From Escherichia coli (lineage in GTDB: Bacteria; Pseudomonadota; Gammaproteobacteria; Enterobacterales; Enterobacteriaceae), in the NCBI RefSeq assembly GCF_965641715.1, contig NZ_OZ282461.1: DNA of 1,541 bases, one strand, 5' to 3'. This document shows positions 1-1,340 of the stretch, in pieces. The notes below the pieces were generated by a model. The model had not been told where the DNA came from. It made no database searches and saw nothing but the letters and a program-made list of their open reading frames with translations. A program made the position numbers and the translations under genes. Each line of letters begins with the position of its first letter. Position 1 is the stretch's first letter.

Positions 1-37
1 GTGCTCAATGTGGCTTCCGGTTCTCTTCCGCTTCCTC

Positions 38-80
38 GTCGATTCGCTCGCTACGCTCGGTCATCGACTTGCGGCGAGCG
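38..80. other. Hairpin-rich segment resembling what I recall as the primosome-assembly-site (single-strand initiation) region downstream of the pMB1/ColE1 origin
   Basis: Seen in sequence: cttccgcttcctcg (26-39) and ...cgctcgctacgctcggtcatcgacttgcggcgagcgg... parallel pBR322 cttccgcttcctcgctcactgactcgctgcgctcggtcgttcggctgcggcgagcgg (recalled). Dyads gtcgat (38-43) with atcgac (63-68), and cgctcgc (45-51) with gcgagcg (74-80), are preserved despite substitutions. Function is inference. Confidence 0.4.
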
Positions 81-386
81 GTGTCACCTCTCGCATGTTG
101 TCGGTGATCCCGTTGTTGTTCTTTCGGGGATGAGTCGTCAGATAGCCCTTCAAACACGCTCAGAAGCTCTCAGACGCACGAAACGGGTTTTAGATGCCCG
201 TCAGGGCATGGAAGGCGCGAAAAACGCTTACAGAGGCTCTCAGGAGGTCAGGCGCGCCGATACCCCTAACCAGGGGCTTTCAGGTCGCCAGGAACCGCGC
301 CAGCCCCCTGCAAAGCCCATTTGCACGGTACAGGCAGCCACTCGGTTGGTAGGTGGTCGTAGACCGTCGGTGTTACAGCGATGGGG

Positions 387-440
387 GTCTGGGGTTCTCC
401 CCAGACGGTTTCCGGTTGCGCTCAAGGCGCTGCCGGAACC
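387..440. other. Two tandem stem-loops in the GC-rich non-coding region (perfect 8-bp stem at 387-406; imperfect longer stem at 407-440)
   Basis: Seen in sequence: gtctgggg-ttct-ccccagac, then ggtt-t-ccgg-tt-gcgc-tcaag-gcgc-tg-ccgg-aacc. Whether they function as RNA or as single-stranded DNA structure is unknown. Confidence 0.35.
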
Positions 441-576
441 GTGGCGGCTCGGTCGTTCTGGAGATCGGGGAGCAAAAACACGCAAGGGATTTTGAGGCGG
501 CAAAAGAGCAATGCAGGATAGACAATCATGGTCAGAACGTTAACACGTAGCCCCTGATTGTCCGCCTGCCGCTGGC

Positions 577-1056
577 TCAATTTGAAAACATGGCCATGAT
601 TCGGCGCTGAATATCACCGTCTTTGTTGACCAGTGTTTTAGTGACAAACGCCGCGTAGTTTTTAGATGTGTTGTATCCCTTCCAGACTTCATGTGGATCC
701 AGTGCATACGCACAAACCTTACCGGCAACAGGAATTCTGACTAACGCGTTTTTTGATTCTAAGTAGTTGAGCCAGCGCTTAATTGTGCTTCGGCTAACAC
801 CCAATTTATCTGCTAAAAACTGCTGATCGGCAACGACAGCACCGCATGAGGGATCTATGTGCTCAGCTAAAAACGAGTAAAGCGGTATTGCTACAACTCC
901 CTGCTTGTCCTTCGACAGTTCTCGGATCCTTTCCCAGCCCTTCTGATAAACCTGGGTGAATGGGCCGTTATTTTTCGGATCTGGTTCCGATTCTTTGTTT
1001 AATTTTTCCAGTTCTTTTAGACGCTTTTTTCGCTGCTCTTCAGTCCCGATATACAT
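577..1056 (-). CDS. Putative plasmid replication initiator or DNA-binding regulator with a helix-turn-helix motif (RepA-like, as in small cryptic enterobacterial plasmids); 159 aa
   Basis: Seen in sequence: ORF from the track, ATG at 1056-1054 and TGA stop at 579-577 on the minus strand. A GGAG Shine-Dalgarno (plus-strand ctcc, 1064-1067) lies 7 nt upstream of the ATG. The segment ...VADQQFLADKLGVSRSTIKRWLNYLESKNALVRI... (approx nt 736-834) has the pattern of a helix-turn-helix. The N-terminus is lysine/glutamate-rich. It is the only long ORF in the AT-richer block and is preceded by a repeat-rich region. Inference: Rep-like function from motif and context; a vague recollection of pKL1-type 1.5-kb plasmids with a small RepA is not verified. 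Confidence 0.75.
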   Translation of the reverse strand: MYIGTEEQRKKRLKELEKLNKESEPDPKNNGPFTQVYQKGWERIRELSKDKQGVVAIPLYSFLAEHIDPSCGAVVADQQFLADKLGVSRSTIKRWLNYLESKNALVRIPVAGKVCAYALDPHEVWKGYNTSKNYAAFVTKTLVNKDGDIQRRIMAMFSN

Positions 1057-1063
1057 GGTAAAT

Positions 1064-1067
1064 CTCC
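1064..1067 (-). promoter_or_regulatory. Shine-Dalgarno (GGAG) for the 577-1056 CDS
   Basis: Seen in sequence: minus-strand reading is ...gaccgtGGAGatttaccATG, with 7 nt between GGAG and the start codon. Confidence 0.6.
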
Positions 1068-1086
1068 ACGGTCTAATAATGGCTCA

Positions 1087-1115
1087 AATATAAGCTATCA
1101 TAGCTCAAACGTAAA
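1087..1115 (-). promoter_or_regulatory. Putative sigma70-type promoter for the HTH gene (-35 TTTACG, 17-bp spacer, -10 TATATT, read on the minus strand)
   Basis: Seen in sequence: minus-strand reading is catggTTTACGtttgagctatgatagctTATATTtgagcc. The -35 hexamer corresponds to plus 1110-1115 and the -10 to plus 1087-1092, about 30 nt upstream of the ATG. Matching to consensus was done by eye; no transcription start data. Confidence 0.35.
1093..1105. promoter_or_regulatory. 13-bp palindrome agctat-c-atagct inside the putative promoter spacer (candidate autorepressor operator)
   Basis: Seen in sequence: perfect dyad agctat/atagct around a central c at 1099. Its position between the putative -35 and -10 is typical of repressor operators (inference). 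Confidence 0.4.
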
Positions 1116-1131
1116 CCATGATAGGTCGACC

Positions 1132-1153
1132 TAGCTCACACATGCGTGAGCTA
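1132..1153. repeat. 22-bp near-perfect palindrome tagctcacacatgcgtgagcta (10 of 11 dyad pairs)
   Basis: Seen in sequence: the reverse complement differs from the forward sequence only at the a/c pair (1140/1145). Overlaps the first direct-repeat copy. Confidence 0.65.
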
Positions 1154-1182
1154 ACCTTAGACCACGCATGCGTGAGCTAACC
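1137..1182. repeat. Two 20-bp direct repeats (cacacatgcgtgagctaacc at 1137-1156 and cacgcatgcgtgagctaacc at 1163-1182), period 26 bp; iteron- or operator-like
   Basis: Seen in sequence: 19 of 20 identity. The second copy contains a perfect 12-bp palindrome, cacgcatgcgtg (1163-1174). Related half-motifs (g)agcta/tagct recur at 1082-1088, 1093-1105 and 1194-1199. Functional role is inference. Confidence 0.65.
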
Positions 1183-1275
1183 CATAATGCAAGTAGCTAA
1201 AAAATCAATAACTTACAAAATCGCCCTTAAATATCTTTTCTGCTGAAAGTGTTGCGCGAAGCGGAACACTTTTTT

Positions 1276-1299
1276 GGGGTGTCGGGGCGAAGCCCTGAC
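1276..1299. repeat. Left arm of a 24-bp inverted repeat (ggggtgtcggggcgaagccctgac); the arm is also an internal hairpin
   Basis: Seen in sequence: the reverse complement of 1504-1527 is ggggtgtcggggtgaagccctgac, matching 23 of 24 positions. Within the arm, gtcggggc and gccctgac are themselves near-complementary. Confidence 0.7.
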
Positions 1300-1340
1300 A
1301 CAGTCACGTAGCGATAGCGGAGTGTATACTGGCTTATTCC
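1276..1340. other. ColE1/pMB1 bom-like origin of transfer (oriT) with putative nick motif CTGG/CTTA at 1329-1336
   Basis: Seen in sequence: ggggtgtcggggcgaagccctgacacagtcacgtagcgatagcggagtgtatactggctta closely resembles the pBR322/pMB1 bom segment gggtgtcggggcgcagccatgacccagtcacgtagcgatagcggagtgtatactggcttaac, recalled from memory. Established knowledge: the ColE1 relaxase MbeA nicks within CTGG/CTTA. The nicked strand was not determined here. Confidence 0.6.

Follow-up and report, generated by a model that had tools for sequence, protein, structure and literature searches.

The non-coding region of a 1.5-kb pKL1-type plasmid of Escherichia coli as a probable cis-acting module for DNA transfer and priming

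The 1,541-base window, that is, the whole stretch of Escherichia coli DNA analyzed here, is a complete small plasmid of the pKL1 or "Col(MG828)" group, in which repA is the sole credible gene. The region at positions 100-576 is, in our assessment, probably a cis-acting module for DNA transfer and priming, and neither a gene nor the vegetative origin of replication. Its parts are cis-acting signals of kinds already known, not of a new one: a single-strand priming-signal unit at 186-330 on the plus strand, apparently of the plasmid G-site / G4-type family and presumably dependent on primase, and a predicted origin of transfer (oriT) of the IncX type at 502-563 on the minus strand. No earlier assignment of these signals to this region was found in the literature searched.

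Relatives of the putative priming unit in large plasmids

Two kinds of models define the unit and its family. The covariance model R1 includes three paired elements, denoted H1, S2 and H3, and has the R100 sites in its training set. An nhmmer model combines sequences of Col(MG828)-type plasmids, the plasmid labeled L007 in our comparison, Yersinia, Arsenophonus and partial IncX sequences, and holds neither R100 nor the full IncX4 copies. Model R1 produces a single match in the window, at 184-330 on the plus strand. Its matches outside the training set include IncX4 29387-29540 and 31467-31620 (E = 2e-15), Arsenophonus (4e-15), a third IncX4 copy at 32945-33082 (8e-8), and a single site in ColIb-P9, 2340-2196 on the minus strand (57.5 bits, E = 6.7e-16), 710-850 bp downstream of repZ. 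The R100 site at 46085-46229 on the minus strand scores 61.8 bits as a training-set member. The nhmmer model detects both full-length IncX4 copies at E = 1.9e-4, and when it was run over 136 kb from R100, ColE1 and phages, its two best matches fell about 400 bp beyond oriR and beside oriT of R100; adding an IncX4 copy to the model did not improve the R100 E-values.

The connection also holds in the opposite direction. A reverse nhmmer model made of the R100 and ColIb sites only finds the L007 unit in full length (E = 1.4e-5). An IncFII-like repA lies upstream of this unit, which has 82.7% identity with window 192-383. The link from the window through L007 to R100 and ColIb is therefore reciprocal, despite the weak direct similarity between the window and R100, and homology to the R100 G-site and the single-strand initiation (ssi) site of ColIb-P9 is found with both R1 and the reverse model. 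Masai and Arai reportedly described in 1989 a "G site" of R1/R100, about 400 bp downstream of oriR, as a G4-type signal at which primase alone primes, and Bernander et al. reportedly mapped the in vivo start at this site in 1992. The ssi near the ColIb-P9 origin is likewise a G4-type primase signal, as reported by Tanaka et al. in 1991.

The window unit shares with the R100 and ColIb sites H1 followed by GGAAGGCG, S2, CGCCGA followed by a hairpin, and CCCTGCnAnnCC, as well as the strand and direction relative to repA, with synthesis directed away from this gene. The layout, in which repA is followed by about 270 bp and then by the priming unit, is the same in the window, R100, ColIb and L007. 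The differences are the low direct similarity, bridged by L007, and the identity of the preceding gene: the window unit follows an unrelated small helix-turn-helix Rep with an origin reported upstream of its gene. Taken as a whole, these relationships suggest that 186-330 is a unit of the plasmid G-site family. Among the candidates put forward in a reading of the sequence only, a lagging-strand origin comes closest: 186-330 indeed belongs to a single-strand priming family, but the signal is better described as G4-type/G-site, a class that primes a leading or complementary strand.

Several further members and neighbors of the family were noticed. R100 (L021) contains a second member at 5495-5648 on the minus strand, between a DUF932 gene and a transglycosylase gene beside oriT/traM, on the presumed transferred strand. 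In IncX4 (L009), 29250-29669 and 31330-31749 form a 420-bp direct repeat, 99.8% identical, with one priming-unit copy each; each repeat copy ends just 5' of a leading-region gene (encoding a J-domain protein and a hypothetical protein, respectively), with the unit on the strand opposite the genes. Beside the R100 G-site, R100 46033-46086 resembles window 135-188 over 55 nt (69%, E = 0.012, including CAGAAGCTCTC), in the opposite orientation relative to the priming unit.

The two IncX4 copies within the 420-bp direct repeat precede leading-region genes by about 130 nt and presumably lie on the transferred strand, which would fit an Frpo-type single-stranded-DNA promoter in place of a primase site. 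However, at E<=100 the nhmmer model of the unit has no match in Frpo1 or Frpo2 of ColIb or in Frpo2 of F, most pairwise scores do not rise above the shuffle level, no -35/-10 pair is found in a stem, and no gene follows the copies in R100, ColIb and the window. We consider such a promoter scarcely probable.

Conserved structure of the putative priming unit

Hairpin H1 (ATGCCC gtca GGGCAT) occupies 194-209 on the plus strand and is followed by the conserved GGAAGGCG at 210-217. Over 13 distinct sequences, 97% of the H1 cells are paired, and 3 of the 6 pairs change on both sides, the variants of the window stem being ATGCCGC/GCGGCAT, ATCCGC/GCGGAT and GCGCCC/GGGTGT. The long-range stem S2, on the same strand, joins 214-219 (GGCGCG) with 253-258 (CGCGCC); pairing is kept in 88% of its cells, with two-sided changes at 2 pairs. 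Elsewhere, its arms read GGGGCG/CGCCCC (IncX4), GGCGG/CCGCC (R100 G-site and ColIb) and GGCCA/TGGCC (R100 leading region), and in IncX4 32945-33082, S2 is a short hairpin, GGCGC ttt GCGCC. The template strand thus contains conserved stem-loops.

Hairpin H3 (CCCCT aacc AGGGG; 263-276, plus strand) has the conserved CGCCGA directly on its 5' side. A stable hairpin is found in this place in all full-length members, with sequences that differ (CCGGC gtaa GCCGG, CCCGC aaa GCGGG, GCGGC gca GCCGC), and diverged members have DNA mini-hairpins there, namely, GCGAAGC in Yersinia, GCGGAGC in Arsenophonus, and also GCGTAAGC. The stability of such mini-hairpins is much greater in DNA than in RNA, and hairpin I of phage G4 contains one (PMC13037366). 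Farther 3', the putative primase start motif CCCCCTGCAAAGCCCA at 304-319 (plus strand) overlaps a hairpin at 309-325 and contains, at 308-310, the sole CTG that is conserved in all full-length members. The motif takes the form CCCTGCTAAGCC in L007 and ColIb and CACCCTGCAAAGCCCA in the IncX4 leading copies.

The sequence-only reading had proposed covariation analysis across homologs, and this analysis shows that H1 and S2 covary. There are 5 two-sided pair changes compared with 1.1 in shuffles, none of 500 shuffles reaches 5, and slid controls are much lower; these figures come from alignment A3, which is model-based and fitted to the structure, and lean towards structure. In the plain MAFFT alignment A1, where the hairpins are out of register, the covariation is not significant.

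Resemblance to the complementary-strand origins of phages G4 and alpha3

Three motifs on the plus strand of the window, TTAGATGCC, CATGGAAGGCG and CCTGCAAAGCC, recur in the complementary-strand origins of phages G4 and alpha3, where their order and strand are unchanged. The shared set consists of TTAGATGCC; (CA)TGGAAGGCG, which is the 5' arm of hairpin I; and CCTGCAAAGCC(C)A, the annotated G4 primer start, the last element having the general form CCTGC(A/T)AAGCC(C)A. In alpha3, the 5' arm of hairpin I likewise reads TGGAAGGCG, the G4 version being TGGACGGCG. Over 10 nt, the motif CCCCCTGCAAAGCCCA is identical to the primer start annotated in G4, CTACTGCAAAGCC (primer feature 3970-3997), and the alpha3 counterpart is CCTCCTGCTAAGCCCA. 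The differences between G4 and alpha3 have parallels among the plasmids, in the variants CTGCAAAGCC and CTGCTAAGCC(A)AAA, and every full-length member has, in one variant or another, a CTG 3' of the hairpins in a G4-like context.

The score of the chain alignment on the plus strand was reached by 3 of 200 shuffles for G4 and by 12 of 200 for alpha3, and the minus strand was not significant. When run over the alpha3 genome, the R100/ColIb model matches best at the start of oric. The plasmid unit differs from the phage origins in its spacing, in the lack of hairpin II, and in that the stem resembling hairpin I encloses about 33 nt. A BLAST comparison of the region with phages gave no relevant match.

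A predicted IncX-type oriT

The segment at 502-563 (minus strand) is the predicted core of an oriT of the IncX type (TaxC, MOBP) and comprises an inverted repeat, 521-531/552-562, next to a nick-region motif, TATCCTG|C (TATCCTGC; 513-520, minus strand), in which the predicted nick, as read from the sequence, falls between 514 and 513. Over 55-62 nt, the segment is 85% identical to both IncX4 arms (E of 1e-13 to 1e-14), which form a perfect 92-bp inverted repeat, 24961-25052 / 33288-33197, the arms adjoining ddp1/taxC and the rep gene, respectively. Conjugative IncX plasmids have been described as having two oriTs inside long inverted repeats in these positions (PMC3402527, PMC3332091). A run of 23 bases, CAATGCAGGATAGACAATCATGG, covering the nick-like site together with the left repeat arm, is identical with the IncX repeat. 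On the minus strand, the motif directly follows the right palindrome arm, such that the sequence reads ...TGATTGTC TATCCTG|C. The IncX4 relaxase is typed MOBP in PLSDB. The predicted nick, 513|514, is also the exact point at which homology of the window to IncX1 (L025 2901-2943) breaks off. The sequence-only reading recognized neither an oriT core in the 521-562 palindrome nor the sharing of the region, as a mobile module, by plasmids whose replication genes are unrelated.

The resemblance to the oriTs of R6K, pOLA52 and IncX4 thus includes both the 85% identity of the repeat core and the inverted repeat adjoining TATCCTG|C. The window differs in having a single copy without taxA, taxC and ddp genes, which makes it an orphan oriT, and in its diverged inner palindrome, of which a second variant is found in L001 and L004. 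The 502-563 segment therefore appears to be a second orphan oriT of the plasmid, from which the minus strand would be transferred starting at 513. The distance from the priming unit to the IncX nick is about 145 nt in IncX4 and about 195 nt in the window, with the unit on the retained strand in both.

Two further observations concern this locus. An end of similarity at 513/514 is the expected trace of recombination at a nick site. In the equivalent of window 518-575, L001 and L004 have a palindrome variant with the center TCAAATGTTAACATTTGA and an extra hairpin, CCAAAAACGGGGTTTTTGCC; the variant matches the IncX4 repeat beyond the part kept in the window, which suggests at least two acquisitions or gene conversions. 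A minus-strand promoter, TTAACG-17-TATCCT (546-515), was also considered here and was reinterpreted as the inverted repeat and the nick of the oriT.

A non-coding module joined to unrelated initiators

The GC fraction is 0.591 in 100-576, 0.446 in repA (577-1056) and 0.416 in 1057-1270. The sequence-only reading had depicted this part of the plasmid as GC-rich and non-coding, and that description is borne out. The open reading frames (ORFs) rich in arginine and glycine that it mentioned, including the 164-aa plus-strand ORF (1-495), are indeed present in the sequence, but we regard them as non-coding because none of the ORFs of 100-576 has a Pfam match at E<=0.1, the variable columns are distributed 37/32/36 over the three codon positions, i.e., without codon periodicity, and homologs contain frameshift-type indels of 1, 2, 8, 25 and 47 nt within the 164-aa ORF. 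A coding function of these ORFs was accordingly ruled out.

The four hairpins named in the same reading were all recovered: 194-209 on the plus strand (H1), with a perfect 6-bp stem; 387-406, with a perfect 8-bp stem; 407-440, imperfect and present in all folds; and the inverted repeat 521-531/552-562, belonging to the predicted minus-strand oriT. Taken by number, the perfect hairpins exceed chance only marginally, as 16 of 300 shuffles reach the same count, and the folding stability is moderate (DNA z = -3.65 for the plus strand of 140-480). The hairpins are real through conservation and covariation in distant homologs and not through their number.

A conserved linker, 88-185, connects the primosome assembly site (pas; see below) to the priming unit and contains a hairpin, 107-112/125-131. 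The linker is collinear with IncX1 and with segment 27214-27428 of the replication region of IncX4 (83% over window 26-241), and its stem, ATCCCG/CGGGGAT, is replaced by ATTCCG/CGGGAAT or ATTCC/GGAAT in L012 and L002, i.e., by compensatory changes. On the other side of the unit, the conserved extension at 331-500 includes the hairpins at 387-406 and 407-440. In Col(MG828)-type plasmids, conservation of its 331-447 part exceeds 90%; 448-500 is variable. The extension is partial in L007 (to 383) and in IncX1 (422-449 and 471-513), and is absent from the R100 and ColIb sites; the 387-406 hairpin is lost in L002, and that at 407-440 is half present in IncX1.

The region was found in 655 plasmid records by megablast and in 836 by blastn, with 90-98% identity among small E. 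coli plasmids. The block at about 88-447 accompanies at least five unrelated Rep families. It adjoins pKL1 RepA; a 146-aa MarR-like protein (L011, L016); RepL (L004, L013); Rep_3 (L003); the IncFII-like RepA (L007); RPA (Arsenophonus); and pir (IncX1, IncX4). A true ColE1 replicon, L002, likewise contains the block, together with Rop and, at a distance of 1.5 kb, a canonical RNAI. Window 1-578 and 1273-1540 are found again in L011, but nothing of the rep cassette. A block associated with unrelated initiators cannot hold Rep-specific origin sites, and its function must therefore rely on host or helper factors. As a separate observation, comparison of window 579-1272 with L011, L016, L017 and L012 shows a constant backbone of about 850 bp, consisting of bom (basis of mobility; see below), pas and the GC-rich region, on which a rep cassette of about 700 bp is swapped; the small plasmids look like one chassis with exchangeable initiators.

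The typing label follows the same block. The plasmids L002, L005, L011, L013, L016 and L017 lack the pKL1 RepA and are still typed Col(MG828) in PLSDB; the plasmids with this type include those with RepL, the MarR-like protein, a 95-aa ORF, or the ColE1 RNAI/Rop replicon. Conversely, L012 has a RepA homolog, yet is not typed Col(MG828). Because plasmids without RepA bear this label, the typing marker must be located in the non-coding block.

The region is a mosaic of pieces common to IncX4, IncX1 and a MOBC plasmid. This raises the alternative that it is conserved passenger DNA, a recent recombination patch from IncX-like plasmids with no role here. The mosaic itself, the 90-98% identity among small E. 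coli plasmids, which fits recent spread, the variability of 448-500 and the loss of several hairpins in some members would all be compatible with this possibility. It does not account for the persistence of 186-330, with compensatory changes, in Yersinia, Arsenophonus, IncF, IncI and IncX, for the retention of the unit in 1.5-kb plasmids while the rep cassette is swapped, or for the fact that the unit always adjoins replication or transfer functions. We consider it unlikely and concur with the sequence-only reading that the stretch is not functionless and acts in cis.

Plasmid layout and the vegetative origin

The records nearest to the window are 1.55-kb E. coli plasmids with 94-96% identity, and pKL1 itself (NC_002145) also matches. 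Three records from phage collections labeled "Escherichia phage" (OR844798.1, OR844749.1 and OX638291.1; 1.4-1.9 kb) match the region in full length with 95-96% identity; evidently, these are pKL1-type plasmids, packaged or mislabeled. The repA gene (577-1056, minus strand) encodes a 159-aa homolog of pKL1 RepA with an HTH_36 domain.

The presumed vegetative origin (oriV) or operator at 1132-1215, upstream of repA, combines 25-bp repeats and palindromes at 1132-1182 with a perfect IHF consensus at 1203-1215, which is the sole IHF site detected in a motif scan, with none in 100-576; no DnaA box was found in the entire window. In pKL1, the oriV is reported to precede rep and to contain an IHF box as well as sites for Rep binding (PMC3832669). 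In the window, the repeats and the IHF consensus agree with this published position, and the vegetative origin is presumed to lie there, outside 100-576. In the same intergenic part, a terminator-like hairpin, AAAGTGTTGCGC gaa GCGGAACACTTT followed by TTTT, is located at 1246-1275 on the plus strand, between the repA promoter region and bom; an automatic scan made no call there.

The order of repA, about 270 bp and the priming unit, shared with R100, ColIb and L007, would also be consistent with a RepA-dependent vegetative origin downstream of repA, similar to IncFII oriR. Against such an origin, 100-576 has no iterons, AT-rich stretch or DnaA box, the repeats and the IHF site are upstream of repA, where the pKL1 oriV is reported, and the association of the block with five unrelated Rep families leaves no room for Rep-specific sites. 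We regard an origin in this position as highly unlikely.

ColE1-type mobilization sites and the remaining alternatives

The module is flanked by two sites of the ColE1 type. The bom/oriT at 1271-1336 (plus strand) is 94% identical to ColE1 1528-1462 and contains CTGG|CTTA (CTGGCTTA; 1329-1336), with the predicted nick at 1332|1333; the homolog of ColE1 pas / ssi at 23-82 (plus strand) is 83.6% identical to ColE1 1367-1308. The ColE1 nick, which we take to be 1469-CTGG/CTTA-1462, coincides with the end of the alignment. The two sites, 94% and 84% identical, have the same order and orientation as in ColE1, but next to pas, where ColE1 has its RNA II/RNA I origin, the window has the module instead; both bom and pas are outside 100-576. 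Plasmids of the ColE1 family have an ssi of about 82 nt beside oriV (PMC5935869).

With a nick of the ColE1 type on the plus strand, this strand is the one transferred in ColE1-type mobilization, and the priming unit, about 400-530 nt 3' of the presumed nick, has a position typical of such signals, on the transferred strand near oriT or on the leading-strand template beyond the origin. Next to this nick, a 24-nt inverted repeat, GGGGTGTCGGGGCGAAGCCCTGAC (96% complementary; 1276-1299 / 1504-1527), brackets 204 nt that include an 18-nt palindrome (1460-1497); the repeats and the palindrome may be the relaxosome-binding repeats of bom.

In terms of position relative to bom and pas, the region sits where ColE1 has ori and RNA II. 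Furthermore, repA is transcribed towards the region, and the plus-strand RNA fold has z = -1.96. Accordingly, a regulatory or primer RNA, either similar to ColE1 RNA II/RNA I or arising by read-through of the repA transcript, had to be weighed, and a regulatory RNA was also among the candidates of the sequence-only reading. However, 100-576 has no RNAI or other Rfam match at E<=10 in a search that scores ColE1 and L002 at 74-81 bits. L002 has the block plus a separate canonical RNAI/Rop replicon 1.5 kb away. No promoter or terminator is called in 100-576, and TTAACG-17-TATCCT is better explained as an inverted repeat and a nick. Finally, the H3 mini-hairpins are DNA-specific, and frameshift-type indels are tolerated. 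An RNA function appears quite improbable. A ColE1-like RNA-primed origin specifically, which was suggested by the order of bom, pas and the region and by a likeness to the RNA I promoter seen by eye, was rejected: BLAST finds bom and pas only, and the window contains no RNAI (Rfam RF00106) or RNA II primer region.

The same reading had also offered a multimer-resolution site. A conserved, non-coding stretch of about 280 bp that is mobile among small plasmids could be an XerCD-type site like cer. No such site was found: in 100-576, no XerC/XerD core with 11-bp arms and a 6-8 bp spacer is present within 3 mismatches, nor is an XerD arm within the same limit; there is no composite core in the window; and similarity to ColE1 is confined to bom and pas. 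We deem a cer-like site exceedingly improbable.

Observations at odds with the proposed assignment

The following observations weigh against the transfer-and-priming interpretation. The direct link between the window and R100 is weak: the R100 matches of the nhmmer model have E of 0.19-2.1 only, the R100 site ranks 4th among 1,246 R100 windows in a Smith-Waterman comparison, and the R100 sites are part of the R1 training set.

With respect to the phages, model R1 has no match in G4 or alpha3, and BLAST of G4 oric against plasmids gives no relevant match. The hairpin-I-like stem is not directly followed by a CTG, the conserved CTG being located about 75 nt farther on. The compact, very stable three-hairpin architecture of G4 oric is not found in the unit, as judged by its spacing and by its folding z-score of -1.27, i.e., about -1.3 and thus little better than shuffles, on the plus strand compared with -4.65 for G4 oric. 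Within the unit, H3 shows positional conservation only, with no fixed-register covariation. The 186-330 segment folds no better on the plus than on the minus strand, and the wobble cells, 4 G.T versus 4 C.A, do not identify the strand; strand choice by whole-unit thermodynamics or by wobble counts was tried and is uninformative.

At the predicted IncX-type oriT, TATCCTG|C is recognized by its match to a MOBP nick-region consensus that we take to be YATCCTG|Y, and the IncX1 locus that was examined has no TATCCTG. In IncX-type transfer, moreover, the priming unit would be on the retained and not on the transferred strand.

Proposed mechanism

Under the preferred interpretation, that of a transfer and priming module, H1, S2 and H3 would fold when the plus strand becomes single-stranded, and DnaG would start a primer at the CTG (308-310) within CCCCCTGCAAAGCCCA, with synthesis proceeding leftwards, away from repA. 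During vegetative replication, the unit would prime the strand that grows away from repA, as in R1/R100 and ColIb-P9. In ColE1-type mobilization, the plus strand would enter the recipient 5' end first and expose pas and then the unit within about 530 nt, such that the two signals could allow the complement to be made in the recipient. In the other transfer route, a TaxC-type relaxosome provided by a co-resident IncX plasmid would bind the inverted repeat at 502-563, and the minus strand would be cut at TATCCTG|C (514|513) and then transferred. The primase dependence, the exact start site, the nicking and the role of the priming unit that matters are what we infer in this scheme.

A more specific and distinctly more tentative version, which we put forward as a possibility we rather doubt, makes the plasmid a double hitch-hiker. 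Its orphan oriTs of the ColE1 type (plus strand, 1332|1333) and of the IncX type (minus strand, 514|513) would face each other across 100-576, and the region would enter the recipient first with either helper, carrying strand-specific priming signals for establishment. The unit might also prime the replacement strand in the donor, as in IncX4, and the module, not rep, would be the Col(MG828) marker.

Implications

In E. coli and related genera, cryptic plasmids of 1.5 kb rank with the most common elements, and have one gene, with a third of the DNA unexplained. Three points are of moderate interest here: the signals are assigned to plasmids of the pKL1 type, the two orphan oriTs form a convergent pair, and the Col(MG828) type follows the module. 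The covariance model is a way to annotate the priming-signal family, its matches in IncF, IncI, IncX and Arsenophonus falling in stretches without a listed feature. The Col(MG828) label used in PlasmidFinder and MOB-suite follows the non-coding block, and so groups plasmids with unrelated Reps and can mislead replicon-based epidemiology. If the priming and transfer interpretation is true, it would explain how these plasmids replicate and spread with a single 159-aa protein, their predicted mobilization by two different helper systems, and the exchange of rep cassettes on one backbone.

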